NCBI GenBank assembly: GCA_037446305.1
Contig: JBBIIW010000003.1
Location: 1-44,937, forward strand
DNA length: 44,937 nucleotides
Reading direction: 5' to 3'
Source: Candidatus Rokuibacteriota bacterium
GTDB taxonomy: Bacteria > Methylomirabilota > Methylomirabilia > Rokubacteriales > CSP1-6
Shown here: positions 7,239 to 38,527 of the stretch, piece after piece
Numbering within the stretch: the first letter of the stretch is position 1
How the letters are laid out: the number at the start of each line of letters is the position of its first letter
Program-made: the position numbers and the translations under genes
The notes under the pieces: model-generated
The model's input: only the letters and a program-made list of their open reading frames with translations
What the model was told of the DNA's origin: nothing
Database searches by the model: none

Positions 7239-7248
7239 CGGGGACGCG

Positions 7249-13769: not shown

Positions 13770-13797
13770 AAACCCTCCGGCGGCCCGCGACGAATAC
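13770..13797 (+). promoter_or_regulatory. ECF-type promoter candidate P1: AAACCC-N15-CGAATAC
   Basis: One of four identically spaced copies in the window. It ends 14 nt before the GTG at 13811 of an ECF sigma gene. Confidence 0.55.
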
Positions 13798-13810
13798 GTC
13801 ATGACCCAGC

Positions 13811-14521
13811 GTGCACGGTTCCCCGATGAGCGCGATGAACACGGCGGCGCCGGTGGCGGCGGCCCGCCCTCGCGGCGGCAGCCCAAACGAGCCGCGCGAC
13901 TGGCAGGCCGAGTTCGAGCGGTCGGTCCTGGTGCACCGGGACTGGCTGCATCGCCGCGCGCTCAAGCTGTGCCGGAATCCGGCGGATGCCGAGGATCTGG
14001 TCCAGGAGACGTACCTCCGCGCCTTCCGGCGCTTCGACAGCTTCACTCCCGGCACGAACTGTGGCGCCTGGCTGGCCACGATCTTGCGAAACACGTTCCT
14101 CAACCTTGTCACCCGGCAGACCCGCGAAGCGCCGGGACGGGACGCGACCACGGTGGAGCGCGAGCTGGCCTTGCGGGGGGAACTGGCGCCGGACCCGGAG
14201 CAGGAGCGCGTGCGCCACGTCATCGACGACCGGCGGCTGGCCGACGCCGTCGAGGCTCTTCCCGGAAAGCTCCGGTGGGCCGTGATCCTGGCGGACGTCG
14301 AGGAGTGCTCCTACCGCGAGATCGCCGAGATCTGCGGGGTGCCGGTCGGCACGGTGATGTCCCGCCTGTTCCGGGGGCGCCGGCGCCTCCGGAGGGCCTT
14401 GCGGAACGGCCGCGCGGACGCGCCGCCAGGGGCGCTTGCTGCTTCCCGTCCGCCTGTCGGCGGAGCCTCCCGGCCGCGGCGCCGGCCACGCTACCGGCAG
14501 CCTCAGCCCGCCAGCCGGTAG
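13811..14521 (+). CDS. ECF (group 4) RNA polymerase sigma factor
   Basis: Region 2 (DAEDLVQETYLRAFRRFDSF...GAWLATILRNTFLN) and region 4 (LPGKLRWAVILADVEECSYREIAEICGVPVGTVMSRLFRGRRRL). The ATG at 13826 is an alternative start. Confidence 0.8.
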   Translation: MHGSPMSAMNTAAPVAAARPRGGSPNEPRDWQAEFERSVLVHRDWLHRRALKLCRNPADAEDLVQETYLRAFRRFDSFTPGTNCGAWLATILRNTFLNLVTRQTREAPGRDATTVERELALRGELAPDPEQERVRHVIDDRRLADAVEALPGKLRWAVILADVEECSYREIAEICGVPVGTVMSRLFRGRRRLRRALRNGRADAPPGALAASRPPVGGASRPRRRPRYRQPQPASR

Positions 14522-14982
14522 AAGCCGCCCAGGATGGCGCCGTACAGGAGATGGGCCAGGACGGTGACCGCCGGGGTCTGGTAGCCGTAGTTCAGGGCCA
14601 GGAAGCCCGGCGGCTCGAGGGCTCGCGTGGGTTCCGGACCGCGATGCTCGCTGGCCATCCGGGGATGGAAGCCCGGCAGCACAGGCATGACGGCGACCAG
14701 CACGGCCAGGGCGTGCACGAGGCCGATCCCGGCGCCGAGCCACCAGGTGGCCCGGCCCCAGCTCTCGAAGGCCAGGGCGTAGAGCACGGCGAAGACCCAC
14801 CCGTTGACGAGATGCATCAGGAAGCCGAGCATCGGCGCCCGGTCCCGGTCCGCCGTCACCATCGCGCCCAGCATGAACGGGATGCTCATCCGCGAGATGC
14901 CGAGCCCCTGCGCGGCCGTCATGACGGTCGTGAGCACGATGGTCGCCACGAAGCCCCAGAGGAAGACGGCGCCCACGTTCAC
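14503..14982 (-). CDS. Small polytopic membrane protein of unknown function. Its GTG start overlaps the GH15 stop (GTGA).
   Basis: Four predicted TM helices (VGAVFLWGFVATIVLTTVM..., MLGFLMHLVNGWVFAVLYALAF, WWLGAGIGLVHALAVLVAV..., VTVLAHLLYGAILGGFY). Confidence 0.55.
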   Translation of the reverse strand: MNVGAVFLWGFVATIVLTTVMTAAQGLGISRMSIPFMLGAMVTADRDRAPMLGFLMHLVNGWVFAVLYALAFESWGRATWWLGAGIGLVHALAVLVAVMPVLPGFHPRMASEHRGPEPTRALEPPGFLALNYGYQTPAVTVLAHLLYGAILGGFYRLAG

Positions 14983-16847: not shown

Positions 16848-17101
16848 GCTCCTTCCTGTCTGGATGCTCGCTTCCAGGATGCGCTCGCCGTCCCGTTCGC
16901 GCCACCGGTCGGCCCGGTGCGCAGAACCCGGGCCGGCACGCCCTGCGCGTCCGGCGCCATGCTCGGCGGGGCGCGCGCCCCGCTGGCGGGAATCGCCCGG
17001 GTCGTTCGACTGTTCCACTCGGTGACGATGGATACGATGAGGCCTCATCGCCGAAGGATTCACGGCGGGCCGGGAACCGTCTCGGCCCCCCGCGGCGTCC
17101 T

Positions 17102-17842: not shown

Positions 17843-17867
17843 CGCTCGAGAGAGGCGCTGCCCGGCG

Positions 17868-19274
17868 ATGACGTTCCGCGAACGCGCAGACCAGCACGCT
17901 GAACACATCTTCCCGCCCCTGTCGGCCCTCGACGAGGGGGACGGGGCGCCGGGCCCCCGGACGCTCGCCGGCCCCGCGGCCCCGGAGAGTCCCCGGGCGC
18001 AGCGCCTGGTCGAGGCGCCGCCGCGTCACGACGACGTCGCTCTCTACCTGAGGGAGATCGGCCGCGTCCCGCTGCTGACGGCGCGGCAGGAGGGCGAGAT
18101 CGGCCGCCGGATCGAGGCCGGTCAAGCGGCGCTTCGTCACGCGCTGGCCGGCATTCCGGTGGCTGTCAACCTGCTGCTCGAGATCGGGGATCGGCTGGGG
18201 CGGGGCGAGCTTCCAGCGGAGACGGTGATCGCCTCGCCGGATGCCAGGCCGCTCGGACCGGACGACGTTCACGGCGTCCTGCGCGCATTCCGACAGATCG
18301 GCCGCCTGACGCGGACCATCGCCCGCCTCCAGCGCTCGCGGGACGGCGGCCCGCGAGCCGCTCTGGCCCGGGCGGCCGTCATCGCGACGCACCGACGGGC
18401 GATCCAGCGTCTCGTCGCGGCGGCGCCCCTCAACCCGCGACTCGTCGAGGCGCTCCTGAGCCGGGTGCGAAGCCGGGGGGAGGACGCGTACGCCGGGCTC
18501 CCCCGACCCCGACGGCGGGCCGTCCTCGAGCAGATCGAGATCTGGGAGCGCGAAGTCCGGCAGGCCAGGCATGCCCTTGTCGAAGCCAACCTCCGGCTCG
18601 TCGTCTCCATCGCCAAGCGGTACCAGGGACGCGGCCTGCCCCTGCTGGATCTGATCCAGGAGGGCAACCTCGGGCTCATGCGGGCGGCCGACGGGTTCCA
18701 GTACCGCCGAGGGAACCGATTCTCGACCTACGCCACCTGGTGGATCCGCCAGCGGATCGCGCGGGCGATCGCCTACCAGTCGCGCACCGTTCGCCTCCCG
18801 CAGCGACTCGTCGAGCGACTGCAGCACATCGGCCGGGCGCGCCGGGAGCTGAGCAGCGCGCTGGGCCGTGAGCCGAACCCGGAGGAAATCGCTCAGCGCG
18901 TCGGGCTCCCGCCCGCCATCGTCCGGCAGGGGCTGGCCGCCTCCGGCCAGCCCCTCTCGCTCGAGAGCCCGGTGGGGGACGCCGGGACGCTGGGCGATTT
19001 CCTCGAAGATACCGCGGTCTCGGCGCTCGACCTGGCTGCGGACAGCGATGAGCGCCGGAGCGTCGAGCGGGCGCTGGCGACCCTCGCCCCCCGCGAGCGC
19101 ACCATCCTGCGGCTCCGGTTCGGCATCGGCGGTGGCGCCGAGCACACGCTGGAGCAGATCGGCCGACGACTCGGCGTGACGCGGGAGCGTGTCCGCCAGA
19201 TCGAGGCCGCCACGCTCGATCGTCTCCGGCACCGATCCTGGGGCCGCGGCCCGGACTGGGCCGTGCCGCAATGA
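17868..19274 (+). CDS. Sigma-70 family (RpoD-like, regions 1.2-4) RNA polymerase sigma factor
   Basis: [92 protein letters not shown]...[20 protein letters not shown]. Confidence 0.85.
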
Positions 19275-20490: not shown

Positions 20491-20505
20491 ACAGGACATC
20501 GGTCG

Positions 20506-20925: not shown

Positions 20926-20953
20926 AAACTTTTCTTCGGAGGGAAGCGAATAC
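20926..20953 (+). promoter_or_regulatory. ECF-type promoter candidate P2: AAACTT-N15-CGAATAC
   Basis: Same architecture as P1, P3 and P4. It lies in the only AT-richer patch of the intergenic region and ends 9 nt before the GTG at 20962. Confidence 0.55.
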
Positions 20954-20961
20954 CAATTACC

Positions 20962-21516
20962 GTGAGGACCGACGAGGAGCTGATGGCGAGGGTGGCCGAG
21001 GGCGACTGGGACGCCTTCGAGCTACTCCTCGCCCGCGTCGAGACGCCCCTGTTCGCGTTTCTCCACCGGCTCGGGGCACGCCCGGACATCGTTCAGGATC
21101 TCGCTCAGGAGGTGATGCTGCGGCTCTACGAGCACCGTCGCCGTTACGACCCCGAGCGCCCCTTCCGGCCTTGGCTCTTCGGCATCGCCGTCAACGTCTG
21201 GAAGGACTCACGGCGGCGCGGAGCCCGCGAGCATGCCGGCCTCGAGCGCCTCTGGCTGACAGGCGAGGACGAGGCGCCGGTGCCAGAGCCCGACCAGCGG
21301 GCCCAGGTGCTGGAGGACGCCGAGGCGGTGCGCCGCGCGGTCCAGGCGCTGCCGGAGGCCGAACGGGTGCCGCTGATCCTGCGGCACTACCACGGGCTCT
21401 CCTATGCGGAAGTCCAAGAAGTCCTGCGGATCCCTCTCGGGACGGTGAAGACCCGGATCCATGTCGCAGTCCAGAAAGTGCGCGCCGCCTGTCAGGCAAT
21501 GTCCAGGACGGTGTGA
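20962..21516 (+). CDS. ECF RNA polymerase sigma factor
   Basis: Region 2 (DIVQDLAQEVMLRLYEHRRRYDPERPFRPWLFGIAVNV) and region 4 (LPEAERVPLILRHYHGLSYAEVQEVLRIPLGTVKTRIH). The ATG at 20983 is an alternative start. Confidence 0.8.
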   Translation: MRTDEELMARVAEGDWDAFELLLARVETPLFAFLHRLGARPDIVQDLAQEVMLRLYEHRRRYDPERPFRPWLFGIAVNVWKDSRRRGAREHAGLERLWLTGEDEAPVPEPDQRAQVLEDAEAVRRAVQALPEAERVPLILRHYHGLSYAEVQEVLRIPLGTVKTRIHVAVQKVRAACQAMSRTV

Positions 21517-21532: not shown

Positions 21533-22378
21533 ATGATGCCCGGATGTCGGGATGCCCGAGAACGGATGGTCGATCACGTGTACGGCGAGCTGGCGGCCGA
21601 CCAGGCCGCCGACCTCGATGTCCATCTCGACACGTGTCATGGCTGTCGGGAGGAATGGGAGCGGTTGCGTCGCGACCTGGCGAGGCTGGACGCGTGGACG
21701 GCGCCGCTCCCACCCAGGAGCCTTCGGGACCGTGTCCTCGCCGACCTGGCGCGCCGGCGCGCCGAGGCGGCCGAGCGTTCCTTGGTCGCCTCCCGCCCGG
21801 AGCGAGTGGTGGCCGCGACCCTGTTGGGCGCCTTGGCGGCGGGGATCTCGCTGCTACTCGTGTCGGGCGTGGGATCCGGAGCCCTACCGCCGGTCGGGTT
21901 CGGCGTCGTGGGCGCCGTGTGGGCGACGTTCTACGCGGGCGCGCTCGTCCTGGCGGGATCCCGCCCCTTCGGCGCGGCGTCTCGGGCAGCTCTGACCGGC
22001 GCCGGGATCGCGATGATCCTCGCGGCGCCCCTGGCGATCCCGAGGGTGGTCGAGGTCTGTGCCCGCCTGGTGCAGGGAGCCTCCGGCACCATGGCGTTCG
22101 CGGTCGTGGTGATGGTCGTCGCTGTCGGATACACCGCTGGTCCGTTGCTCATCGGGGGGCTGGCCTTCCGGGGGCCCACGACCGGCGGTGGGCTGGCCGA
22201 AGGGGTGAAGCGGTCTGCGCTCTACGCGTTACTGGTCGCGCCTGCGGTGTACATCCAGTGCCTGTCCCAGCCGCTCGACGTCACCGCCGTCTGGATGGCG
22301 GGGGCGATTCTCGGCGCGGCGCTGGCCGGGCCGCTGAGCCTCCACCTGCGCGGCAGGTGGGCCGCGAGCCCCGCCTGA
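21533..22378 (+). CDS. zf-HC2 anti-sigma factor with a polytopic membrane C-terminal domain
   Basis: Lies immediately downstream of the ECF sigma. HLDTCHGCREEW zinc-finger motif, then about six hydrophobic segments. Confidence 0.75.
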   Translation: MMPGCRDARERMVDHVYGELAADQAADLDVHLDTCHGCREEWERLRRDLARLDAWTAPLPPRSLRDRVLADLARRRAEAAERSLVASRPERVVAATLLGALAAGISLLLVSGVGSGALPPVGFGVVGAVWATFYAGALVLAGSRPFGAASRAALTGAGIAMILAAPLAIPRVVEVCARLVQGASGTMAFAVVVMVVAVGYTAGPLLIGGLAFRGPTTGGGLAEGVKRSALYALLVAPAVYIQCLSQPLDVTAVWMAGAILGAALAGPLSLHLRGRWAASPA

Positions 22379-22453: not shown

Positions 22454-22481
22454 AAACCCTCTGCCGGTCGGCGGCGAATAC
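22454..22481 (+). promoter_or_regulatory. ECF-type promoter candidate P3: AAACCC-N15-CGAATAC
   Basis: Exact copy of the motif, ending 9 nt before the ATG at 22490 of the TolC-like gene. This implies a leaderless or very short-leader mRNA. Confidence 0.6.
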
Positions 22482-22489
22482 GTGTTGGG

Positions 22490-23884
22490 ATGTGGGGGCC
22501 TGTCGTCCAAGCGGCGAGAGTGGCGGTCCTGCTTGCCGGTCTGGGACTCCTGGGCGCCGCCGGCCCCGGGCTCGCACAGCCCCCGGAACCGGAGAAGCTG
22601 ACTCTCGACGAGGTCGTCGATCTCGCGCTGGCGAGGAACGCCGCGGTGCGAGCGGCCGCGCGCGAGGTCGAGGCTGCGGCCAAAGCCCACGCGGCCTCCC
22701 GCGGCCGCCTGTGGCCGTTCGCCGACATCTTCGGCGACTGGCAGTACTCGGGCCCCGACGAGGAGAACAAGACCCGGCTGCTCGCCAATATCGGCCGCAT
22801 GCCGAAACTCGGACCAACGCTGAGCGACAACCAGCCCATCGGCGGCATCCCGCGCCGGGAATTCGACCACAACCTCTACGCGGTTGGGGTCCGGGTCACC
22901 TACCCTCTCTACGTCGGGGGTCGGATCGTCGCCGAGATTGAAGCCAACCGCCTCTTGACCCTGCTTGCGAGAGAGCGGGCGACGCAGACCGTGGACGAGC
23001 TGATCTTCAACCTCAGCAGCACCTTCTACAGCATCCTGCGGCTCCAGGAGAACGCCAGGGCCACCGAGGCCAGCGTCCGGGCTCTCCAGGAGGCCCAGAA
23101 GAACATCCGCGCGCTGGTCGAAGTGGGGCGGCTCCCGCGGGCCGATCTCTTCAAGGTGAACACCCGTCTGGCGGCCGTCCGCCAGGAGCTGATCAAGGTG
23201 CGGAACGAGGTGGAGCTCGCGCACGCCGTCCTCAAGACGCTCATGGGGCTCGAGGTCACGGAGCCGCTGGGCGTAAAGGGGGCGCTGGGCAGCGAGCCCG
23301 TGGCCGTCGACCTGCCACTCGACCTCAGCGAGGCCGAACGGCGCCGGCCCGAGCTGCAGGCGGCGCGCCGTGCGGTCGAGGTCCAGGCGCAGCGCGTCCG
23401 GATCGCCCGGGGGGCCCGGCTTCCCCGGGTGGACGCGAGGGCCCAGTACGCGGGGGGAGCCGGGGAGTCGGATTTCGGGAAGCCGCTGGGTGACTTCGTC
23501 GTCGGCGTGAACATCTCGATCCCGATCTTCACCGGTGGCCAGCTCCAGGCCCGGATCGCCGAGGAGGAGGCCCGGCTGGCCCGCGCTCGGGAGGCGTTGG
23601 AGAAGGCGCGGCTCGACGTGCAGCTGGACGTGCAGACCGCCCACCTCGCCCTCGTCGAATCGAGCGAGCGGATCAGGGCGGCACAGGTGGCCCTGGAGGA
23701 CGCGCGCGAGGCGCTGCGGGTGGAGCAGCTCAAAACCCAGGTCGGCCGAGGCATCGTCGAGGACCTGCTCGACGCCCAGGCGGCGGAGCTCCAGGCGCAG
23801 ACCAACTACACGCGCGCGCTCGCCGACTACAACACGGCGTTGGTGGCAAGGCGGAAGGCGATCGGGCGCGTCCGGGAGCCGTAG
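22490..23884 (+). CDS. TolC-family outer-membrane efflux protein
   Basis: Signal peptide, then LTLDEVVDLALARNAAVRAA and two OEP repeats with typical coiled-coil segments. Confidence 0.85.
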   Translation: MWGPVVQAARVAVLLAGLGLLGAAGPGLAQPPEPEKLTLDEVVDLALARNAAVRAAAREVEAAAKAHAASRGRLWPFADIFGDWQYSGPDEENKTRLLANIGRMPKLGPTLSDNQPIGGIPRREFDHNLYAVGVRVTYPLYVGGRIVAEIEANRLLTLLARERATQTVDELIFNLSSTFYSILRLQENARATEASVRALQEAQKNIRALVEVGRLPRADLFKVNTRLAAVRQELIKVRNEVELAHAVLKTLMGLEVTEPLGVKGALGSEPVAVDLPLDLSEAERRRPELQAARRAVEVQAQRVRIARGARLPRVDARAQYAGGAGESDFGKPLGDFVVGVNISIPIFTGGQLQARIAEEEARLARAREALEKARLDVQLDVQTAHLALVESSERIRAAQVALEDAREALRVEQLKTQVGRGIVEDLLDAQAAELQAQTNYTRALADYNTALVARRKAIGRVREP

Positions 23885-23902
23885 CCAGGAGGGCGGAGGG
23901 CG

Positions 23903-25453
23903 ATGATGGCGCGGATCAGGAGCTGGGTGAACGGCGGTGTGGGACAGGCGGTGAGCCGCTTCCGCGATCGCCGCGCCGGCTGGTTGGGTCGCCACGCCGC
24001 GGCCGTCCAGAAGACGATCGTCACCGCCGTCATCCTCCTTGCCCTCTACTGGGCCGTCACGGCGATCGTCGCGTACATCACCGCGCCGCGGCTGGAGATG
24101 ACCATGAGCCCGGTCGTGGGCCGCATCGCCGTCGTCGCCCAGCCGGCCACCCGCGTGCCCATCGCCCGGAAGGTCACGTACACGGGCAGCGTCGCGTCGT
24201 TCCAGGATGTGACTGTCTATCCCCGCCATGAGGGCTGGGTGAAGGACTTTCAGCTGTACGAAGGCGACCACGTGACGCGGGGGCAGGTGATTGCGCGGCT
24301 GGACACCGCCGAACTCGAGCGCGCGGTCCAGCAGGGGCGGGCGCTGGTCACCCAGGCCGAGGGCGAGGTGCGGGAGGCGGAGGCGCGGCTCGCGGCGGCG
24401 AACGTCGGCGTTCTCAAGGCGGCCGAAGAACGGGCGCAGGCGGAGGCGGCGCTCAAGGAGGCCGAGGCGTTGCTGGCGGTCGCGCGGGCGAATCTTGAGG
24501 CGGCCCGTCCCGGGGTGGTCGAGGCTCGAGCCCAGGCGGAGTATGTCGAGGGGGAGTTCAGGCGCGACGAAACCCTCGTGGCGGGCGGCGCGATCAGCCA
24601 GGCCTCTTTCGACCAGCGACGTGCGCAGTTCGTCAGCGCCCGCGAGCGCATAGCCCAAGCCGAGGCGCGCGTCGTCGAAATGCAGGCTCAAGTCGCCTCG
24701 GCGGAGGCCAAGATCGTCAGCGCACGCGCGGCCATCCGGCGTGCGGTCGCCAGCCAGCAGGCCGCGGTGAGCCACGTTCGCCACGCCGAGGCGGGAGTCG
24801 CTGCGGCCAGAGCCAGGCTCGCCGCGGCCCGGGAGGAGCACGAGCGGCGCCAGGTCGTGCTCGGGTACACCACGATCGAGGCCCCGATCACGGGGCGGGT
24901 GGCCAAGCGCCACATCTACGCCGGCATCCTGGTGAAGCCAGGGATGCCGATCGTGGACCTCCAGGACCTGAGCCGGGTTCGTGTGCAGGCGAAAGTAGCC
25001 GAGCGCGACCTTCCCTTCGTGCGGGTCGGCACGACGGAGGCCATCGTCCGCTTCCCGACCCTGCCCGAAGGGCAGCGGGAACGCCGGGCCCGGGTCACAA
25101 CGGTGTTTCCTCAGCTCGATCCGGTGAGCCGGACGGCCACCGTGGAGATCCTGCTCGACAACCCGGGCGAGCTGATCAAGCCGGAGATGTACGCGGTCGT
25201 GGACCTGGTCCTGGAGCGGAAGGAGAAGGCGATTGTCATCCCGCGCCAGGCGGTCCTCGACGGGCCGGACGGCAAGCCGATCGTGTACGTCACCGACGCG
25301 GTCACCGCCATGTCGCGACCCGTGACGCTCGGGATCGCGGAGGGCGAGCGGGTCGAGGTCCTGGATGGGGTCAAGGAGGGCGAGATGATCGTCGCCCGGG
25401 GTCAGCGGAACCTCTCGGAGGGGGCGCAGGTCCAGGTCGTGGGCGGGCTGTGA
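23903..25453 (+). CDS. Efflux periplasmic adaptor (MFP/HlyD family) with an unusually long alpha-helical hairpin
   Basis: N-terminal TM helix, lipoyl-like halves (GWVKDFQLYEGDHVTRGQVIARLD ... IEAPITGRVAKRHIYAGILVKPGMPIVDL), an intervening Ala/Glu/Arg-rich helical region, and beta-barrel plus MP domains. Confidence 0.85.
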   Translation: MMARIRSWVNGGVGQAVSRFRDRRAGWLGRHAAAVQKTIVTAVILLALYWAVTAIVAYITAPRLEMTMSPVVGRIAVVAQPATRVPIARKVTYTGSVASFQDVTVYPRHEGWVKDFQLYEGDHVTRGQVIARLDTAELERAVQQGRALVTQAEGEVREAEARLAAANVGVLKAAEERAQAEAALKEAEALLAVARANLEAARPGVVEARAQAEYVEGEFRRDETLVAGGAISQASFDQRRAQFVSARERIAQAEARVVEMQAQVASAEAKIVSARAAIRRAVASQQAAVSHVRHAEAGVAAARARLAAAREEHERRQVVLGYTTIEAPITGRVAKRHIYAGILVKPGMPIVDLQDLSRVRVQAKVAERDLPFVRVGTTEAIVRFPTLPEGQRERRARVTTVFPQLDPVSRTATVEILLDNPGELIKPEMYAVVDLVLERKEKAIVIPRQAVLDGPDGKPIVYVTDAVTAMSRPVTLGIAEGERVEVLDGVKEGEMIVARGQRNLSEGAQVQVVGGL

Positions 25454-25486
25454 GGCTGGCGCACATCGGCTGAAGGAGCGCCGCGC

Positions 25487-28400
25487 ATGCTGAAGGCGAT
25501 CCCGAAGTTCGCGGTCGAGCACCCGATGGTGATGATCCCGATCTACCTGGCGATGATCGGGGTCGGCGTCGTCATGTACCGGCACCTGCCGCTCGAGCTC
25601 CAGCCGTATTTGGAGAACCCGACCGTCGGGATCGTCATCACCTACCCAGGCGTCTCCGCCGAGGACATGGAGTACTACTTCGCCCGGCCCATCGAGAAGA
25701 AGATGGGCGTGCTGGGCGGGGTCACGTTCATCCGCTCCAACTCGCAGGAGGGGCGCACCGAGGTCGTCATCGGCTTCGAGTACGGCTCGGACATGAACCA
25801 GCACAAGCTGGACGTGCAGACCCTCCTGACCAACATGCTCAACGAGCTCCCCTTCGACAAGGACAACACGACCAACCCCTGGGTCGTCCACGTCGCCAAC
25901 GACAACGTCCCCATCCTTGACCTCAACGTCACGCACAGCGAGTGGGACGACGTCCGGCTGCGCGAGTTCCTGGACAACATCGTCCGGGAGCGGCTCGAGT
26001 CGGTCCCGGGCGTCCAGTCGATCATGCCCTACGGGGGCAAGCGCCGGCTCATGCTGGTCGAGGTGGACCGGGACCGGCTCGCCGCGTACCAGCTCGGGCT
26101 CATGGAGGTCAAGACGGCCATCGAGCAGCAGCACCTGAGCCGGGCAGCCGGCAAGCTTCGCTCTCGGGAGTGGGACATCCTGGTCCGGGCGGACGCGATC
26201 CTCCGCGATCCGCGCGACCTCGGCGGGATCCCCATCGGGACGTTCAAGGACCGGGTCGTCTACCTGAGGGACGTGGCGACGGTGAAGGACTCCTTCGCCG
26301 AGGTGACGAGCAGCTACCACTTCAACGGCCGGCGGGGCATCCTCCTCACGCTGATCAAGCAGCCACAGGTGGGCGACAAGGAGCCGATCGAGGGGGTGCT
26401 GGCGCGCATGGACGAGTTCGTGCGCGAGTACCCCGGGCTCCGGTACGAGATCGCCTACAACCGCCTGAACTTCCTCGAGCGGATCATCGCCAACGCCTGG
26501 CACGAGATGTTCCTGGCGTTCACGATCACGTCCATCGTCGTGCTCGCCTTCCTGAATCAGATCCGCCCGACCTTCATCGTCCTGGTGACGCTGCCGGCGG
26601 CGGTGAGCGCCGGCTTCATCTGGTGGCGGCCGTTCGGCTTCACGGTGAACACACCGACCCTCATGGCGCTGACCTTCGTCATCGGCCGACTGGTGGACGA
26701 CTCGGTGATCATGATGGAGGTCATCGACCGCCATCTCCGGATGGGCAAGCCGCCCAAGCAGGCGGCCATCGAGGGCGCCCAGGAGGTGAGCGGGGCGATG
26801 GTCGCCATCGGCGCCACGGCCTGGCTCGCCATGGGGCCGGCGCTCTTCCTCGGCGGCACCATGGGGACGGGTTTCCAGGGAATGACCGCCCCGATGATCT
26901 TCGCCAACCTCATGTCCACGTTCTTCACGCTCACCCTCGATCCGACGCTCCGGGCCTATCTCCTGCGGCCGCGGACGAAGGAGACGATGACGATCACGGA
27001 CTACCTGGACCGGGGCGTCGAGGTCCTCATGCGGCCGGCCCAGTGGCTCTTCGGCCGGGCGGAGTGGCTCCAGCTGAACGTGCTGAACTGGGCGCTCGAC
27101 TACCGCGTCGTGGTCCTCGCCGTCGGCGCCGCCTCGCTCTACGCCGGCTACAAGATCTGGCCGACACTCGGCTGGGAGGGCATGCCGCTCCAGGACACCG
27201 GGCAGGCCGTGGGCGAGGTGGAGACCTGGCCCGGGGCATCCTTCGAGGAGACCGAGAAGATCGTTTCCAAGATCGAGGAGCATCTGCTGAAGAATCCCGA
27301 GGTCAAGCTGGTGTCCACCCAGATCGGTATGGAGCCGGGCCTGGGCACCGCGCCGAACTTCACGTACTTCTCGGGCTACGGCGTCCGCACCGTGAACAAG
27401 GCGTTCTTCAAGATCACGCTCACCGACACCGACGAGCGCACCTGCCAGTTCTACCACCGCTGGGCCGACGGCTTCGCGCCGCTGCGCCCGCTGGTCCAGC
27501 CCTGCGCGGAGCGGAGCGGGCGGACGATCTGGACGATCCTCGACACCACGCAGGCCCAGATCCTGGCCCACGTCCCCGGGATCCGCAGCCTCTGGTTCAT
27601 GGAGATGGGGGCGACGCCCGTCAACACGGCGCGGGCGCCCGTGGAGGCGATCATCAAGGGCGACGACATCGCCGTCCTGGACCAGCTCGGCAAGCAGGCG
27701 CTGGAGGTCGGCAACCGGACGCCCGGCCTGGTCCAGCCGTTCACCTCCTGGTCGATGACCATGCCCCAGTACCGCCTGGAGATCGACCGGGTCCGGGCGA
27801 AGGAGCTGGGCCTCGCGGTGCCCCAGATCGCGATGCAGGCCTTCTACGCACTCCAGGGCGGCTTCACGAGCGAGTTCTTCAAGCCCGAGGAAGGCTACCG
27901 GCACACGCGCTTCCTGATCCGCTACAAGCCCGAGCAGCGGCGGACCCTGGAGGACCTCGAGCAGGTGAAACTCACGACGCCGACGGGCAAGGTCGTCCCC
28001 CTCAAGGAGGTGGCCCGGGTGGTGCCGCGCAACGGGGTGGACTGGGTGTACAAGGAGGACCTCCAGTACGCCCTAACCGTCCTGGCCCAGTACCGCGAGG
28101 TCGGCCTGAAGATGGCCACCGCCGGGCTCATCATGGGGATCAAGACCTCGGTCCCGCTGCCCAAGCGCTACACCGTCCAGCCCAAGGGCATGATGCTCGA
28201 CATGCTGGACAACCTCTACCGCCTGTACAACGGCATGTACCTGGCGATCGGCATCCTCTTCATCCTCCTGCTCCTCCAGACCCGCTCGATGGTCTCGACG
28301 CTCGCGATCCTGGTCGACGCGCCGCTGGAGTGGATGGGGGCGATCTACCTGCTGTGGCTCCGGGGCTTCAACTGGTCACCGCCGGTCGTGTGGGGGATGA

Positions 28401-29074
28401 TGCTCGCCACCGTCATGGTGATGGCGACCGGCATCCTCCTGGTCGAGAAGATCACCCAGCTCGAGGCGGCGGGGCTGGACCGCCGGCGCGCGGTGCTCAC
28501 CGCCTCCCCCATCCGGCTGCGGCCGGTGCTCATGACGACGCTGACCACGGCGTCCGCCTTCATCCCGCCCATGTTCGCGCCCCCGACCGGGATGGACCGC
28601 TTCCGGCCGATCGCGACGGCGATCGTGGGCGCACTGATCAGCTCGACGGCCCTCGGGCTCATCACGGTGCCGGTCATCTACACGGTCCTGGACGACCTGC
28701 GGCAGTTCCTCCGGAAGGTGTACGCGGGCCTCCCGTTCGCGCGGAGGGTCAGCGGCGAGGAGTTCGTGCGCAAGCTCCCCGCCCTCCCGACGGAGGTCCT
28801 GTGGGAGCTCCGCCACGTGGACCAGTACAAGCCGGGCGTCTTCGGGTTCGATACGAGCGTCATCCCTCGGATCCTCGAGGAGCGGGAGCGGGCGCGAAAG
28901 GCGCGGGAGGCGCGGGAGGAGGAGGTGATCGAGGTCGAGGAGCTGCCCCTCCCGGCGCTGGCCGGCGGCGCCGGCGACGGTGCGCCTCACACCCAGGACC
29001 CGATCCGGGGCGTCAGTCCCCGGGCGGCGGGGGACGGCGAGAACCAACCACCGGAACGGCCGTCACACGGGTAA
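25487..29074 (+). CDS. RND-superfamily efflux permease (AcrB/CzcA-like) with a charged C-terminal extension
   Basis: 1195 aa with 12-TM topology and two large periplasmic loops. TM4 motif VIGRLVDDSVIMMEVIDRH. Confidence 0.9.
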   Translation: MLKAIPKFAVEHPMVMIPIYLAMIGVGVVMYRHLPLELQPYLENPTVGIVITYPGVSAEDMEYYFARPIEKKMGVLGGVTFIRSNSQEGRTEVVIGFEYGSDMNQHKLDVQTLLTNMLNELPFDKDNTTNPWVVHVANDNVPILDLNVTHSEWDDVRLREFLDNIVRERLESVPGVQSIMPYGGKRRLMLVEVDRDRLAAYQLGLMEVKTAIEQQHLSRAAGKLRSREWDILVRADAILRDPRDLGGIPIGTFKDRVVYLRDVATVKDSFAEVTSSYHFNGRRGILLTLIKQPQVGDKEPIEGVLARMDEFVREYPGLRYEIAYNRLNFLERIIANAWHEMFLAFTITSIVVLAFLNQIRPTFIVLVTLPAAVSAGFIWWRPFGFTVNTPTLMALTFVIGRLVDDSVIMMEVIDRHLRMGKPPKQAAIEGAQEVSGAMVAIGATAWLAMGPALFLGGTMGTGFQGMTAPMIFANLMSTFFTLTLDPTLRAYLLRPRTKETMTITDYLDRGVEVLMRPAQWLFGRAEWLQLNVLNWALDYRVVVLAVGAASLYAGYKIWPTLGWEGMPLQDTGQAVGEVETWPGASFEETEKIVSKIEEHLLKNPEVKLVSTQIGMEPGLGTAPNFTYFSGYGVRTVNKAFFKITLTDTDERTCQFYHRWADGFAPLRPLVQPCAERSGRTIWTILDTTQAQILAHVPGIRSLWFMEMGATPVNTARAPVEAIIKGDDIAVLDQLGKQALEVGNRTPGLVQPFTSWSMTMPQYRLEIDRVRAKELGLAVPQIAMQAFYALQGGFTSEFFKPEEGYRHTRFLIRYKPEQRRTLEDLEQVKLTTPTGKVVPLKEVARVVPRNGVDWVYKEDLQYALTVLAQYREVGLKMATAGLIMGIKTSVPLPKRYTVQPKGMMLDMLDNLYRLYNGMYLAIGILFILLLLQTRSMVSTLAILVDAPLEWMGAIYLLWLRGFNWSPPVVWGMMLATVMVMATGILLVEKITQLEAAGLDRRRAVLTASPIRLRPVLMTTLTTASAFIPPMFAPPTGMDRFRPIATAIVGALISSTALGLITVPVIYTVLDDLRQFLRKVYAGLPFARRVSGEEFVRKLPALPTEVLWELRHVDQYKPGVFGFDTSVIPRILEERERARKAREAREEEVIEVEELPLPALAGGAGDGAPHTQDPIRGVSPRAAGDGENQPPERPSHG

Positions 29075-29090
29075 CAAGAGGAGAACGGCG

Positions 29091-29576
29091 ATGAAAATGC
29101 ATGGCGTGATCACCACACGTTCGCTGATCGCCCTGGCGGCAATCGCCGCGATCCTGGGCGTGGTCGTGACCGGGGCCTGGGCAGGCGAGAAGATGCTGCC
29201 GGGCCGGGTCATGGCCATGTCGAAGTACTCCTTCGACGAGACCGTGAGCCGGGTGAAGCAGGCGATCGAGGGCCAGCAGATGATGGTGGTCTTCAGCGCC
29301 GACCACCAGGCGATGCTCCAGATGGTCGGGCTCCAAACCAAAGGCATGGTCGGGATCGAGTTCTTCCACCCGCGCTACGGCAAGGTCATCGTCGAGAACG
29401 ATCACGCCGCGGGCCTCGAGATCCCCCTCCGGCTGGTGATCATGGAGGGCGACATGGGGACCATGCTGACCTATCAAAAGCCATCGCACACCTTCAGCAA
29501 GTACCCCAGGCTCAAGAACCTCGGTGAGGAGCTGGACGGCGTGCTGGCGACGATCGCGGCCTCGGTTTCAAAGTAA
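29091..29576 (+). CDS. Secreted DUF302 domain protein (copy 1)
   Basis: AAGAGGAG RBS, signal peptide ...ILGVVVTGAWA, and a DUF302-like core (FDETVSRVKQAIEGQQMMVVFSADHQAML...EIPLRLVIME..GTMLTYQKP). Confidence 0.8.
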   Translation: MKMHGVITTRSLIALAAIAAILGVVVTGAWAGEKMLPGRVMAMSKYSFDETVSRVKQAIEGQQMMVVFSADHQAMLQMVGLQTKGMVGIEFFHPRYGKVIVENDHAAGLEIPLRLVIMEGDMGTMLTYQKPSHTFSKYPRLKNLGEELDGVLATIAASVSK

Positions 29577-29589
29577 GGGTGGGATCCAG

Positions 29590-30090
29590 ATGAAACAGAC
29601 GGGGAAGAACGACCGGGCTCTGCGGTTCCTCCTGGGCGGGCTCGCGGCCCTCGGGAGCGTGCTCATCGGCGTCGTCCCGCTTGCGGCCCAGGAGATCAAG
29701 GTCTCGGGCGGGGTGATCGTGGAGAAAGTGGCGAACCATCCCTTCGCGGCCGTGGACGCTAAGCTCCAGGCCGCCATCAAGGGGGCGAAGCTGGTCATCG
29801 TCGGCGAGCCGAACTACCAGATGATGCAGCGGATGGTCGGCCGGGAACGCAAACCCGCGAAGGCGTACTTCGTGTTCCGCCCGGACCTGGGGACCCCGAT
29901 CTTCGACAACGATCCGACCGCGGCGATGGAGGTCCCCCTGAAGATCCTCCTCATGGAGAGAGGAGACGGCAAGACGGTCATCAGGTACAAGAAGCCCTCC
30001 TCGGTCCTGGCGGACTACAAGGGTCTGGAGTCGCTGGGCAAGCAGCTGGACGACCTGCTCGCCCAGCTCACCGACGCAACGATCAAGTAA
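29590..30090 (+). CDS. Secreted DUF302 domain protein (copy 2, tandem paralogue)
   Basis: Signal peptide ...LIGVVPLAAQ. Core FAAVDAKLQAAIKGAKLVIVGEPNYQMMQ...EVPLKILLMERGDGKTVIRYKKP is collinear with copy 1. Confidence 0.8.
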   Translation: MKQTGKNDRALRFLLGGLAALGSVLIGVVPLAAQEIKVSGGVIVEKVANHPFAAVDAKLQAAIKGAKLVIVGEPNYQMMQRMVGRERKPAKAYFVFRPDLGTPIFDNDPTAAMEVPLKILLMERGDGKTVIRYKKPSSVLADYKGLESLGKQLDDLLAQLTDATIK

Positions 30091-30120
30091 CAAGTAAAAA
30101 GGAGAGGAGGCGTAGCCCGG

Positions 30121-30525
30121 GTGCTGACGCGCATCCTCGCGCTTTTCCTGCTCACGCTCCCCCTCCTCGCGGGGTGTGGGCAGTCGAAGGGGGGAACGGG
30201 AGACCTCGCAGTGAGCTTGGTGAGCGAGCCACGCCCCGCACGGGTCGGGGAGAACCTTCTACGGGCTCACGTGACCGGCCGGGAGGGCAAGCCTGTTTCG
30301 CTGTCGGGGATCCGGTTCCATTACTACCCGTTCGTGCACCGAGACAAGGACTCGCTTGCGTCGCCCGATGAGGTTGTCCGCGTGGTGGAGGGGGAGGAGG
30401 CGCAGGACGGATACCGCGCCAAGGCGACCTTCGACAAGCCCGGGCCGTGGAAAGTCACGCTCAAGGTCCTCCGCCCGGACAAGCCTGAAGTGGTGGTGAC
30501 ATTCACCTTCGATGTGCGCGGGTGA
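30121..30525 (+). CDS. Lipoprotein with a YtkA/FixH-like domain
   Basis: Strong AAAGGAGAGGAGG RBS and lipobox LLAGC. The beta-rich domain pattern (PRPARVGENLLRAHVTGREGKPV...GYRAKATFDKPGPWKVTLKV) is typical of YtkA-like proteins. Confidence 0.7.
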   Translation: MLTRILALFLLTLPLLAGCGQSKGGTGDLAVSLVSEPRPARVGENLLRAHVTGREGKPVSLSGIRFHYYPFVHRDKDSLASPDEVVRVVEGEEAQDGYRAKATFDKPGPWKVTLKVLRPDKPEVVVTFTFDVRG

Positions 30526-35038: not shown

Positions 35039-38000
35039 TGGCCGGCGGCCGGCTCCTGCTGGCCTGCTTCTTCCTGTCGGGCGCCACGGGGCTCGTCTAC
35101 GAAGTGGCCTGGACCCGAAGCCTCACCCTCGTGTTCGGGACCACCACCTTCGCCGTCAGCACGATCCTGGCGGCCTTCATGGCCGGGCTCGGCGCCGGTG
35201 CCGCCGCCGTCGGACGGTTCGTCGACCGGGGCGGTCGCCCGCTCCGCGTGTATGCGTGGCTGGAGCTGGGCATCGGCACGTTCGCCCTGGCCTTCCCGCA
35301 CGTCCCGCCGCTCCTCGTGCCCGTCTATCGGGCACTCTGGGAGGGTCAGCACGCCTCGTTCGTCGCGATGAGCCTGGTCCGCTTCGCGATCCTCTTCGTG
35401 CTCCTGCTCGTACCCACCATGCTGATGGGGGGCACGCTGCCGGCCCTGGCCCGCCACTTCGAGACCGGCGAGCGTGCGGCCGGCCGAGCCGCCGGCCTCC
35501 TCTACGGGATCAACACGCTCGGGGCCGTCGCGGGCGCCGGCGCGGCGGGGTTCATGCTCCTGCCGTGGCTCGGGCTCCGACACACCACCACCGTCGCGGC
35601 CGCCGTCAACCTGACGATCGGGGCCGGCGCACTGGTGCTGTCCCTCCGCGAGGCCGGCCCGGCGGCGCCCGTCTCGGCTCCCCAGCGCCGCGACCGCCGA
35701 CTCCGCCCGCCGGAGGCCGGGCTGCTCGCGGTCTTCGCCCTGTCGGGCTTCGTCGCGCTCCTCTCCGAGGTGGCGTGGACGCGCGGGCTCACGCTCGTCC
35801 TCGGCTCTTCCACGTATGCCTTCACGATCATGCTGGTCACCTTCCTGGCCGGGCTCGGCGGGGGGAGCCTCGGGATGGTCCGACTGCTCGGCCGGGGGCC
35901 CGACCTCCTCCGGGCCCTGGCGCTCCTCCAGGCCGGGATCGGCCTGCTGTCGATGGCGGCCGCGCACCTCTTCGCCGAGCTGCCGCTGCTCTATCTCTAT
36001 CTGTTCAAGGCGGTGTCAGGAGCCGCCGCGCCCATGGTCGTGGGCCAGTTCGCGCTGGCCGGGCTGATCATGCTCGGCCCCGCCCTCCTCATGGGCGCGA
36101 TGTTTCCCATCGTCGTCGAGCTGCTGGGCGATCGCCACGCCGGCGAGCGGGTCGGCCTGGCCTACGCGAGCAACACCCTCGGCGCCGTGCTCGGCGCGGC
36201 GCTGGCCGGGTTCGTCATCATGCCCGCGATCGGGATCGCCCACACGCTGATCCTCGGCGTGGCGCTGAGCCTGGCTGCGGCGCTCGGCGTCCTGGCGGTC
36301 TCCGGCCGGCACTGGCGAGGCGCCAGCGTCACGGCCGCGCTCCTGGTGTCGCTTCCGCTGCTGGCCCCGCGCTGGGAGCCGCTCGCGATGTCGAGCGGGG
36401 TCTACAAGGAGGCCCCGCTCTTCCTCCGTCTCTACGCCTCGCCGCCGGAGGTCTTCACCAGATTGCTGCCCCAGTTCAGCCTCCTCTACTACCGCGACGG
36501 TCCCACGGCCACCGTGACGGTGACCGAGCGGCCATCGCTGGAGGATCACCGCCACCTGGCGCTCGCCATCGACGGGAAGGTGGACGCCTCGACCTCGGGG
36601 GACATGCCCACCCAGGTGCTCTCCGGCCACCTTCCTCTGCTGCTGCACCCGGATCCCGAGACGGTGCTGGTGATCGGGCTCGCGAGCGGGGTGACGGTGG
36701 GTGCGGTCGCCCGCCACCCCGTCCGGGAGATCACGGCGGTGGAGATCGAGCCGGCGGTGGTGGAGGCCTCGGGGCTCTTCGCCGCCGTCAACCACCAGCC
36801 GCTGCGCGACCCACGGGTGCGCCTCGTCGTGGACGACGCGCGCAATCTCCTCCTGCGCTCACCCGCGCGCTACGACGTGATCATCTCGGAGCCCTCCAAC
36901 CCCTGGATGAGCGGCCCGGCGAAGCTCTTCACCTACGAGTTCTTCCAGTTGGGCCGCCAGCGGCTCCGGCCTCACGGCCTGTTCGTCCAGTGGCTCCAGC
37001 TCTACGGGATCACGGAAGAAGCGCTGAAGACTCTGGTGAGGACGTTTCGGAGGGTCTTCCCCCATCACCTCGTCTTTCAGCCGGCGGAGGGCGACCTCCT
37101 GCTGGTGGGCGGGGCCGAGCCGGTGCTGGCGCCGCCGAAGCGGATCGGCGAGCGAATGGGCAGGAACGGCATCGCCGAGGATCTCGCGCGAGTCGGCGTG
37201 CGTGACGTCTTCGACCTGCTCGCACGGTTCCGGCTCGGCGAGGCCGAGACGGGCACCTGGGCGGGTGCGGGCCCGCTCAACACCGACGACAACGCGCTCA
37301 TCGAGTTCTCCGCGCCCTGGCAGATCCACCTGGAGACGCTGGCCCGTAACACCGAGGCGGTGGCGCGGGCCGGCGAGCGTGTCGCCCCGTACCTCGCGCT
37401 CGATGACAGCTCCTCGCGCGAGCGCGCAGAGTTCCTGGTCCGTTTGGCCGCGAAGGTCCTGGCCCTGGGCGATGCGACGCGGGCGGAGACGATCGCCGGG
37501 GAGGGACTCGCCCTCGCAACATCGGCCGACGGGCTCTCCGTGCTCGGCGCCGCTCTCGAGCGTCAAGGGCGGGACCAGGAAGCGGTGCGCCTCTGGCAGG
37601 AGGCCCTGACCCTGGCTCCGCGCCACCGGGACACCTTGCTCCGGCTGGCCCTGTACCACCACGAGCGGGGCGAGCCCGCGGAGGCAGCCCAGCGCCTGTC
37701 TCCGCTCGCCGATGCCGGCGACCCAGACGTCCGGTACCTGCTCGGCGTGAGCCACTACGAGCGCAGGCTCTACCGGGGCGCGCTGGCCTTCCTTGAAGAC
37801 GCCGCGAGCGGCGGCCGCCAGCGGCCGATGGACGGCGCCGAGTCTGTGGCGGGCGCGTGGGCGGGCGGCCTCGGCGTCCGGCGGCTGGCGCTGTACTACC
37901 TGCACGTCGTGAACGAAAGGCTCGGTCATCGGCGAGCGGCCGCGCAAGCGTGGGCGCGCTTCCTCGGGGCCCTGGACGACTGGCGGGAGGAGCTCGAGCG

Positions 38001-38469
38001 CAAACGCCCCGACCCCGGGCGGTTCGCTCTCGTCGAGCTCGTCCGGCGCCGCTCGGAACGGGGCGTGGGTCGTCCCGAGGACGCACATCTCACCGAGGTC
38101 CTCGTGCGCCGCGTCGTCGAACCGCTGAGCCATTACTACCAGGGCGTGACGGCCTACATCCTCGGCTATCCGGAGCACGCCATCGCCGACCTGAACGTCG
38201 CCCTGAGCCGGCTCGGCCCCGCCGGGCGGCGGTCGCGTGCGCTCCTGTACCTGGGGCTCGCGGAGTGGAGGCTGGAGCACCTGCCGAGCGCCCGCCTCCA
38301 CCTCGAGGGATTCCTGGAGCATCTGGAGGGCCCTGATCGGAACAGCCTGGCCGCCGCCGAGGCCAGCCGGGCCCTGGCGTCGATCTACGCGGCGCAGGGC
38401 ATGCCCGAACGGGCGGCGGAGCTCGGCCGCCGGGCGGAGCTGATTCTGAAGACCGTCGAGGGCCGCTGA
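35038..38469 (+). CDS. Fused polytopic-membrane / spermidine-synthase-like protein with a C-terminal TPR region
   Basis: About 12 TM helices (LACFFLSGATGLVYEVAWTRSLTLVFG repeated at FALSGFVALLSEVAWTRGLTLVLG). Methyltransferase-fold motifs VLVIGLASGVTVG and YDVIISEPSNPWMSG. TPR-like repeats at the C-terminus. Confidence 0.85.
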   Translation: MAGGRLLLACFFLSGATGLVYEVAWTRSLTLVFGTTTFAVSTILAAFMAGLGAGAAAVGRFVDRGGRPLRVYAWLELGIGTFALAFPHVPPLLVPVYRALWEGQHASFVAMSLVRFAILFVLLLVPTMLMGGTLPALARHFETGERAAGRAAGLLYGINTLGAVAGAGAAGFMLLPWLGLRHTTTVAAAVNLTIGAGALVLSLREAGPAAPVSAPQRRDRRLRPPEAGLLAVFALSGFVALLSEVAWTRGLTLVLGSSTYAFTIMLVTFLAGLGGGSLGMVRLLGRGPDLLRALALLQAGIGLLSMAAAHLFAELPLLYLYLFKAVSGAAAPMVVGQFALAGLIMLGPALLMGAMFPIVVELLGDRHAGERVGLAYASNTLGAVLGAALAGFVIMPAIGIAHTLILGVALSLAAALGVLAVSGRHWRGASVTAALLVSLPLLAPRWEPLAMSSGVYKEAPLFLRLYASPPEVFTRLLPQFSLLYYRDGPTATVTVTERPSLEDHRHLALAIDGKVDASTSGDMPTQVLSGHLPLLLHPDPETVLVIGLASGVTVGAVARHPVREITAVEIEPAVVEASGLFAAVNHQPLRDPRVRLVVDDARNLLLRSPARYDVIISEPSNPWMSGPAKLFTYEFFQLGRQRLRPHGLFVQWLQLYGITEEALKTLVRTFRRVFPHHLVFQPAEGDLLLVGGAEPVLAPPKRIGERMGRNGIAEDLARVGVRDVFDLLARFRLGEAETGTWAGAGPLNTDDNALIEFSAPWQIHLETLARNTEAVARAGERVAPYLALDDSSSRERAEFLVRLAAKVLALGDATRAETIAGEGLALATSADGLSVLGAALERQGRDQEAVRLWQEALTLAPRHRDTLLRLALYHHERGEPAEAAQRLSPLADAGDPDVRYLLGVSHYERRLYRGALAFLEDAASGGRQRPMDGAESVAGAWAGGLGVRRLALYYLHVVNERLGHRRAAAQAWARFLGALDDWREELERKRPDPGRFALVELVRRRSERGVGRPEDAHLTEVLVRRVVEPLSHYYQGVTAYILGYPEHAIADLNVALSRLGPAGRRSRALLYLGLAEWRLEHLPSARLHLEGFLEHLEGPDRNSLAAAEASRALASIYAAQGMPERAAELGRRAELILKTVEGR

Positions 38470-38499
38470 GCGCCGGGCTGGCGGAGCGAGACACCCGAC

Positions 38500-38527
38500 A
38501 AACCCGCGTCCGATCCACGGCGAATAC
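38500..38527 (+). promoter_or_regulatory. ECF-type promoter candidate P4: AAACCC-N15-CGAATAC
   Basis: Fourth exact copy. It ends 14 nt before the GTG at 38541, the same spacing as P1 to 13811. Confidence 0.5.

Follow-up and report, generated by a model that had tools for sequence, protein, structure and literature searches.

The 44,937-nucleotide stretch analyzed here (positions 1 to 44,937 of the forward strand of contig JBBIIW010000003.1, assembly GCA_037446305.1, Candidatus Rokuibacteriota bacterium; hereafter the window) contains four copies of a two-block motif, AAACYY-N15-CGAATAC, each located shortly upstream of a gene. Two of these genes encode extracytoplasmic function (ECF) sigma factors, referred to as sigma-1 and sigma-2 in order of position, the third is the first gene of an efflux operon, and the fourth encodes a small membrane protein. 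The results described below suggest, with a probability that we place at roughly 0.78, that the four motifs are promoters recognized by RNA polymerase carrying sigma-2 (20962–21516), which would regulate its own synthesis and drive the sigma-1 gene, the efflux operon, and the small membrane-protein gene. Dependence on an ECF sigma factor, as proposed in the original prediction made from the window alone, is supported by the recurrence of the same motif with the same spacing upstream of orthologous sigma operons at 45% identity or more, upstream of the TolC ortholog in a related contig (L001), and upstream of the ortholog of the small gene in the closest genome (L005).

Occurrence and conservation of the motif

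The exact pattern occurs four times in the window (Table 1), always on the plus strand and in intergenic DNA, and has no match in 100 dinucleotide-preserving shuffles of the window. The original prediction of four exact, equally spaced copies was borne out by this search, and the distances it gave from the end of the motif to the start codon are correct for all four start codons it named (9 nt to GTG 20962 and ATG 22490; 14 nt to GTG 13811 and GTG 38541). Allowing one mismatch adds just three hits to the window, all of which are intragenic and not site-like. The earlier tally of the CGAATAC block on its own was too low, as the block occurs seven times in the window rather than five, the minus-strand copies at 4606 and 20551 having been overlooked. 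A scan of the window against shuffled sequence had also been proposed, and was run with a position weight matrix (PWM) trained on 15 sites, all from contigs other than the window. This matrix returns exactly the four sites as its top hits, led by site 3 and followed by sites 2, 1, and 4, with a 12-bit gap to the next-best hit in the window at 12.0 bits. Across 200 shuffled windows, the mean maximum was 10.8 bits and the single highest score 22.1 bits. A weak motif-like sequence of 12.0 bits, AAAACCTCC...CGAACC at 13729–13754, lies 42 nt upstream of site 1; scoring near the maximum obtained from shuffles, it is probably not significant.

The two blocks have the arrangement of an ECF promoter, in which the AAAC(C/T)... 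block would serve as the -35 element and CG(A/G)ATA as the -10 element. The distance between AAC and CG is 17 bp at all four window sites and at nearly all related sites, within the ~16–18 bp of ECF promoters, and the spacer sequence between the blocks is unconserved among sites. The ECF-like architecture given in the original prediction therefore stands, with a change to its -10 element: the conserved form is CG(A/G)ATA, as the trailing C of CGAATAC is not kept in relatives. An origin of the four sites in a longer repeat or in a mobile element was also considered, and was rejected because nothing aligns among the four regions beyond the two blocks. An Rfam search of the whole window returned no RNA family. 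Scans of the window for consensus sigma70 promoters and for terminators yielded no promoters and a background level of terminators, respectively, both of which are uninformative at its GC content of ~72%.

The conservation of the motif was probed in fetched contigs encoding sigma-2 relatives (1.42 Mb of loci, cited as L001 and so on where an individual locus is meant). The motif is found upstream of every sigma-2 relative at 45–93% identity, with the consensus cAAAC(C/T)TTT-N12-13-(G)CG(A/G)ATA, a fixed spacing, and differing flanks and spacers. These relatives come from metagenome-assembled genomes (MAGs) of Rokuibacteriota, Methylomirabilia, Binatia, Tectomicrobia, and Nitrospinaceae as well as from many metagenome contigs; in a group at 69% identity, the motif precedes the small first gene of the operon. 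For sigma-2 relatives with no more than 40% identity, no such motif was found. Over all fetched loci, 88 hits score at least 15 bits, 72 of them on the strand of the sigma gene, compared to 15–26 in shuffles, and in the close loci all hits of at least 19 bits share the strand of the sigma gene and precede an open reading frame (ORF).

Conservation extends to the individual targets. The ortholog of site 2 is kept in L001, in L005 (a Candidatus Rokuibacteriota MAG whose sigma-2 is 93% identical), and in at least 25 further loci. The TolC ortholog in L001 has a site at 11901, AAAACCTTCT...CGAATA, placed 7 nt before an in-frame ATG, and in L005 the ortholog of the fourth target is preceded by the site AAACCT-N15-CGAATC. 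In two other loci (L002 and L093), a different ECF sigma gene lies behind the same motif, and other genes behind the motif in relatives encode small signal-peptide proteins and a Cys-rich, zinc-ribbon-like protein. A conserved motif together with orthologous targets is the footprint that would be expected of an autoregulated ECF promoter with a local regulon.

Two side observations were made in the related contigs. In L001, at 7611–8025, a further copy of the motif precedes a gene for a 119-aa protein with four CxxC pairs and weak zinc-ribbon hits, and this Cys-rich member of the L001 regulon has no counterpart in the window. Distant Planctomycete relatives of sigma-2 (31–34% identity) have a related motif, AAACTTTCTGC-N-GCGTA(A/C/G)C (L026 1141, L029 6542, L031 5739, L035 4168, L060 1227, L064 1032, and L153 1904). 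This motif is located at the 3' end of the sigma gene rather than upstream and would therefore serve as the promoter of the downstream gene.

The sigma factor proposed to read the motif

Both sigma genes were confirmed to encode ECF sigma factors, as originally named, based on matches to Pfam Sigma70_r2 and r4_2 and to TIGR02937 above cutoff, the presence of regions 2 and 4 only, and a length within the ~180–240 aa of such proteins. Neither matches a named NCBIfam equivalog, all specific models falling below their cutoffs. The two proteins share 33% identity. The nearest solved structures to sigma-2 are AlgU, SigW, and RpoE. The best PDB match to sigma-1 is Mycobacterium tuberculosis SigH (E = 8e-36) and its best NCBIfam match is TIGR02947 (SigH_actino), below cutoff; no anti-sigma gene is adjacent to sigma-1.

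The genomic contexts of the two sigma factors indicate which of them the motif accompanies. The closest homologs of sigma-1 (54–65% identity) are located in STAS-sigma operons behind a sigma54-like sequence, GGCAC-N5-TTGC, and in five other contexts examined, no AAAC...CGAATA motif lies upstream of them. Since these homologs lack the motif and the sigma-2 relatives have it, the motif goes with the sigma-2 clade rather than with sigma-1 and its kin. The sigma54-like sequences lie at ~2000–2077 in L086, ~7640–7713 in L087, and ~7630–7704 in L089, and genes for PAS/GAF sigma54 activators are found directly upstream of the STAS-sigma operons in L087 and L089. A SigH-like sigma factor thus seems to be wired to sigma54 in some Rokubacteria and to an ECF promoter in the window.

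Additional information comes from region 2.4 of sigma-2, which co-varies with the third base of the -10 element: GIA[V/R][N/F] occurs with A (9/9) and GIAR[L/I] with G (14/16). Taken together with the distribution of the motif, this co-variation leads us to read site 1 as a probable sigma-2-dependent promoter of sigma-1, that is, as the link in a sigma cascade. Consequently, of the possibilities raised in the original prediction (autoregulation, a cascade, or cross-talk), autoregulation of sigma-2 and a cascade onto sigma-1 are favored, and shared autoregulation by both sigma factors is unlikely given the SigH likeness of sigma-1 and the absence of the motif from its relatives.

The strongest alternative, although an unlikely one, is that the motif is read by sigma-1, or equally by both sigma factors, in which case site 1 would reflect sigma-1 autoregulation and cross-talk. 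This alternative draws on the position of site 1 directly upstream of sigma-1, on the -35 elements and spacers of sites 1 and 3, which are closer to each other than either is to those of site 2, and on the 33% identity of the two proteins. It is countered by the five contexts of the closest sigma-1 homologs, which are without the motif and apparently sigma54-driven, as well as by the association of the motif with the sigma-2 clade across phyla and the co-variation of the -10 base with sigma-2 region 2.4. The SigH likeness of sigma-1 also argues against it, as promoters of the SigH family have the form GGAAT-N18-GTT. The related SigH/SigR consensus, GGAAT-N16-19-GTTG, has no match in the window, a result that bears only on sigma-1-type targets in this contig.

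Several points weigh against recognition by sigma-2 as set out above. Binding of sigma-2 to the motif is deduced from sequence, as are the transcription starts, and the basis for a metal or thiol trigger is gene context and conserved cysteines. The co-variation with region 2.4 is supportive and not decisive, because the sequences are phylogenetically related; it follows phylogeny and may represent few independent events. Related contigs hold several sigma-2 paralogs with near-identical motifs (two within 10 kb in L001), and therefore a paralog elsewhere in this genome could share recognition of the motif or take it over as the true reader. The -35 elements of the targets (AAACCC...) differ from the autoregulatory -35 element (AAAACTTTT), which could mean weaker binding or a different paralog. 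Finally, an internal Met at position 8 of sigma-2 (ATG 20983–20985), preceded by GAGGAG, is a less likely alternative start for the protein.

A considerably less probable reading is that the motif binds a transcription factor, whether an activator or a repressor, instead of serving as a sigma-recognition element. Conserved upstream motifs are often operator sites, and MerR-type regulators are present in the contig. The motif, however, is asymmetric, with two short blocks separated by an unconserved spacer of fixed, promoter-like length; its orientation is always that of the downstream gene, it sits 7–12 nt from many start codons in the place of a -10 element, and it co-occurs strictly with one ECF sigma clade. 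No separate sigma70-like promoter was detected nearby. Lower still is the standing of a group 3 promoter of the sigma28/FliA type, which was suggested by the resemblance of the AAA(G/C)TTT -35 and CG.ATA -10 elements to the FliA consensus TAAAGTT...CCGATAA (PMC13492112, Table 4). The -10 element here has an extra base (CGAATA/CGGATA as opposed to CGATAA), the spacing is 1–2 bp longer, and the tight linkage to an ECF gene favors an ECF promoter. This candidate was rejected, as the canonical pattern (CCGATAA-type -10, TAAA-N15) has no match in the window and the targets are sigma, efflux, and small membrane-protein genes unrelated to flagella or motility. Chance can be dismissed: short AT-containing words are rare and conspicuous at 72% GC, but none of the 100 shuffles contains the exact pattern, an independently trained PWM sets the four sites apart from all else, and orthologous sites are conserved in other contigs.

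Predicted mechanism, transcript leaders, and target genes

The arrangement of sites and genes suggests the following mechanism. In the resting state, sigma-2 would be held at the membrane by the zinc-finger anti-sigma factor encoded immediately downstream. Inactivation of the anti-sigma factor, presumably by thiol-reactive or metal stress, would release sigma-2, which would then act at four promoters: that of its own sigma/anti-sigma operon (positive autoregulation), that of the TolC-MFP-RND-DUF302-DUF302-YtkA efflux operon directly downstream, that of the SigH-like sigma-1 gene 7 kb upstream (a two-step sigma cascade), and that of the small cysteine-containing membrane-protein gene 16 kb downstream. 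The mRNAs of the sigma/anti-sigma and efflux units would be leaderless or nearly leaderless, with leaders of 0–3 nt, and that of the small membrane-protein unit would have a conventional leader of ~43 nt with a Shine-Dalgarno sequence.

The anti-sigma factor has an N-terminal, cytoplasmic zf-HC2 domain (C...HxxxCxxC) and starts at ATG 21533, after the stop codon of the sigma gene. The His and the two Cys residues of its VHLDTCHGC motif are kept in at least 90% of 26 orthologs, which places it with the class I ZAS-type anti-sigma factors. Its membrane domain is multi-pass, with approximately six helices, and includes two cysteines (P-x-V-x-E-C and LQC) that are invariant across the 26 orthologs and are candidate metal- or thiol-sensing residues. 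The unit conserved among relatives consists of sigma-2, the anti-sigma factor, and DUF302, and in the window and L001, the TolC-MFP-RND cassette is located between the anti-sigma and DUF302 genes. Genes neighboring the loci of relatives include merA, merB, merC-like, merE, and CopD. This gene context and the conserved cysteines point to thiol-reactive or metal stress as the trigger.

The predicted leaders depend on the assignment of start codons. The N-terminus of sigma-2, M-x-x-D-x-E-L-M-A, is conserved at the level of protein and the third codon positions vary, which assigns the start to GTG 20962. Between the -10 hexamer and the homology-defined start, the distance is 7–12 nt in the window and in 15 non-redundant related loci, and 32–63 nt in 14 other loci; in the short class, the distance is kept and the intervening sequence is not. 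Assigning the hexamer to positions -12 to -7, in analogy to other ECF promoters, gives predicted +1 positions of 20959, 22487, 13803, and 38533, each of which is a purine following a pyrimidine (a T-G step at 13803 and a C-A step at 38533). At all four window sites, a pyrimidine-purine step is found 6–7 nt after the hexamer, with predicted ranges for the transcription start of 20959–20962 at site 2 and 22487–22490 at site 3. With start codons 7–12 nt past the -10 element, sigma-2 and TolC probably have transcripts with no leader or almost none. The start of sigma-1 is ambiguous (GTG 13811, ATG 13826, which is the public gene call of 231 aa, or ATG 13835) because the N-terminal tails of its homologs vary; its predicted leader is at least 8 nt, with no obvious Shine-Dalgarno sequence. 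The original suggestion of leaderless or near-leaderless transcripts is thus plausible for sigma-2 and TolC and unlikely for the fourth target, whose predicted leader is ~43–49 nt. In L001, the public gene calls for the sigma-2 and TolC orthologs (10001 and 11877) start upstream of or inside the promoter motif, giving proteins of 195 aa (184–188 expected) and 508 aa (489 expected). These called starts are probably over-extended, as the genes lack Shine-Dalgarno sequences.

A pyrimidine-purine start step is a reported property of ECF promoters, and leaderless ECF-driven transcripts have been predicted in Actinobacteria (Todor et al. 2020, PMC7776599). Similar to the Actinobacterial transcripts, those predicted here would combine a start codon placed at a short, constant distance after the -10 element with the lack of a Shine-Dalgarno sequence and a purine start after a pyrimidine. 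In contrast to the Actinobacterial case, the lineage is Rokuibacteriota/Methylomirabilota and their neighbors, and a single sigma clade appears to mix leaderless members with members that have leaders of 32–63 nt.

The fourth target was originally described as an unannotated ORF. ORF 38541–38942 indeed matches no Pfam or NCBIfam family and the site does lie upstream; what changes is the start codon. L005 has an orthologous promoter with a conserved leader behind it, then AGGAGG and a GTG starting an intact 57-aa ORF with a transmembrane (TM) helix and a C-terminal CRGPC. Pairwise alignment reveals that the window shares this Shine-Dalgarno sequence and the GTG (38576), and since both are conserved, GTG 38541 is probably not a start and GTG 38576 probably is. 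Just after codon 6, the window has 193 extra nt (38594–38786), which have no blastn match in any of the fetched loci. The conserved C-terminal part (TM helix and CRGPC) follows with 91% DNA identity between the window and L005; a tblastn search with the C-terminus gives 77% identity. As 193 is not a multiple of 3, GTG 38576 and the TM/CRGPC C-terminus are in different frames, the latter in the frame of ORF 38541–38942. The gene could be frame-disrupted or a pseudogene, mis-assembled by one base, or a longer variant.

The efflux operon extends over ~8 kb (22490–30525), and its gene order, TolC-MFP-RND-DUF302x2-YtkA, is the same in L001. The TolC/MFP/RND operon that the original prediction named as a target is real according to Pfam and NCBIfam, although its synteny is conserved over only these ~8 kb and not over the 12 kb proposed. 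The true starts of the two DUF302 genes are probably located after the preceding stop codons. The predicted ECF regulon takes in only some of the metal-related genes of the window, as the P-type ATPase system comes with a MerR regulator of its own and lacks the ECF motif, and the MerA gene has a normal Shine-Dalgarno sequence and no motif. The true start of the ATPase is probably downstream of 7686, as its long ORF overlaps the MerR gene, and a MerR-ATPase-DUF7482 arrangement is seen again in L088. A sigma70 of primary or group-2 type (468 aa; regions 1.2, 2, 3, and 4), with ~150 residues between regions 1.2 and 2, is encoded between the two ECF genes.

Table 1. Promoter sites and genes of the window. 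Genes were selected by third-position GC content and assigned by Pfam and NCBIfam.
Feature	Position	Strand	Evidence and remarks
Promoter site 1	13770–13797	+	-35 AAAC 13770–13773; -10 CGAATA 13791–13796; upstream of sigma-1; exact match, 25.4 bits
Promoter site 2	20926–20953	+	-10 CGAATA 20947–20952; upstream of sigma-2; 30.7 bits; ortholog sites kept
Promoter site 3	22454–22481	+	-10 CGAATA 22475–22480; upstream of efflux operon; 31.3 bits; L001 ortholog site
Promoter site 4	38500–38527	+	-10 CGAATA 38521–38526; 24.4 bits; L005 ortholog site
MerR-family regulator	7207–7686		Pfam/NCBIfam
HMA-domain P-type ATPase	ORF 7488–10121		Pfam/NCBIfam
DUF7482	10118–10657		Pfam/NCBIfam
Pyridine-nucleotide disulfide reductase	12247–13635		Pfam/NCBIfam
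ECF sigma-1	13811–14521	+	Pfam Sigma70_r2 and r4_2
Group-1/2-type sigma70	17868–19274		Pfam/NCBIfam
ECF sigma-2	20962–21516	+	Pfam Sigma70_r2 and r4_2; homolog alignment
zf-HC2 anti-sigma factor	21533–22378	+	Pfam zf-HC2; NCBIfam anti-sigma; alignment of 26 orthologs
TolC-like outer membrane efflux protein (OEP)	22490–23884	+	Pfam/NCBIfam
Membrane fusion protein (MFP)	23903–25453	+	Pfam/NCBIfam
RND pump	25487–29074	+	Pfam/NCBIfam
Two DUF302 genes	ORFs 28980–29576 and 29524–30090	+	Pfam/NCBIfam
YtkA-like lipoprotein	30121–30525	+	68% identical to the L001 gene
Small membrane-protein gene	38566–38942	+	Shine-Dalgarno AGGAGGAG 38566–38573; GTG 38576 (VGNRIV...); C-terminal part ends at 38942
MerA with HMA domain	43082–44749		Above TIGR02053 cutoff

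A different pairing of an ECF sigma factor with a zf-HC2 anti-sigma factor is found in L002 (3060–8775), where it is followed directly by merC-like, HMA, merE, merB, and merA genes. The AAAC...CGAATA motif was not found upstream of this pair, and therefore a distinct ECF sigma factor may control the mer genes of L002. A broader proposal, which we regard as speculative and rather doubtful, is that the ECF clade described here, with its multi-pass, Cys-bearing zinc-finger anti-sigma factor and DUF302, might be a dedicated sensor of thiophilic metals (Hg, Cd, Cu, Zn) in Rokuibacteriota/Methylomirabilota and neighboring uncultured phyla. Such a sensor might partly replace the role of the MerR family, using leaderless transcripts to induce RND efflux and small Cys-rich proteins, as well as mer genes in some genomes, with a SigH-like thiol-stress sigma factor as a second tier.

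Significance and comparison with known systems

Literature searches on CGAATA and ECF sigma factors brought up no ECF promoter described with this -10 element, and searches on Rokubacteria and sigma factors, or on DUF302 with ECF or mercury, returned nothing specific. The analysis provides a promoter model, cAAAC(C/T)TTT-N12-13-CG(A/G)ATA, and a small predicted regulon for an uncharacterized ECF clade with a wide distribution among uncultured phyla of soil and groundwater (Rokuibacteriota, Methylomirabilia, Binatia, Tectomicrobia, and Nitrospinaceae). Annotation of gene starts could benefit from the model, as in the sigma and TolC calls of L001, and the model flags likely leaderless translation in these lineages. 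It also suggests a mode of control for metal-efflux genes in organisms that cannot yet be cultivated, with metal or thiol sensing as a testable hypothesis. Orthogonal pairs of ECF sigma factors and promoters of this kind are useful parts for synthetic biology.

The closest parallels in general design are the SigW-RsiW system of Bacillus subtilis and the RpoE-RseA system of Escherichia coli. Similar to these class I ZAS-type modules, the system described here has a group-4 sigma factor with regions 2 and 4 only, a co-transcribed anti-sigma factor with an N-terminal HxxxCxxC anti-sigma domain, and an AAC -35 element with a -10 element starting in CG, a pair that precedes both its own operon and the members of a small local regulon. 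The SigW consensus is TGAAAC-N16-CGTATA, and the -10 element of RpoE is TCAAA. In contrast to both, the predicted promoters here have CG(A/G)ATA with a 17-bp spacer and so are not of the SigW type, which has CGTATA and a 16-bp spacer. The anti-sigma factor also differs, as it has a membrane domain of approximately six helices with two invariant cysteines instead of a single TM helix.

With respect to gene context, the system resembles ECF sigma factors associated with metals, namely ECF281 and related, ECF20-derived 'heavy-metal' groups, together with ECF291/CnrH. As described by Casas-Pastor et al. (2021, PMC7826278), ECF281 has a zinc-finger anti-sigma factor at +1, followed at +2 by a 'heavy-metal resistance' protein, and ECF291/CnrH (CnrYX, Cupriavidus) has a full metal-efflux RND operon alongside (PMC7826278). 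Here too, a zinc-finger anti-sigma factor is encoded at +1 and a TolC-MFP-RND operon or DUF302 adjoins, a likeness based on the described gene context and not on group hidden Markov models. Unlike ECF281, the conserved +2 gene is DUF302 (or TolC) and not the Pfam 'heavy-metal resistance' protein. Unlike CnrH, which matches sigma-2 weakly (E = 4e-12) and has the published -10 element CCGTATA, the system here has a -10 element of CG(A/G)ATA and an anti-sigma factor that is not CnrY-like.

A precedent for the proposed sigma cascade is that from ShbA to HrdB in Streptomyces (PMC12019637). As in that cascade, a promoter of the ECF type immediately precedes the gene for another sigma factor, an arrangement that recurs in L002 and L093. 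In contrast to ShbA-HrdB, the target is a SigH-like ECF sigma factor whose relatives are otherwise found in STAS-sigma operons behind sigma54-type promoters, and the cascade is predicted from sequence alone. The overall design is that of standard ECF autoregulation with a local regulon, in a little-studied lineage.

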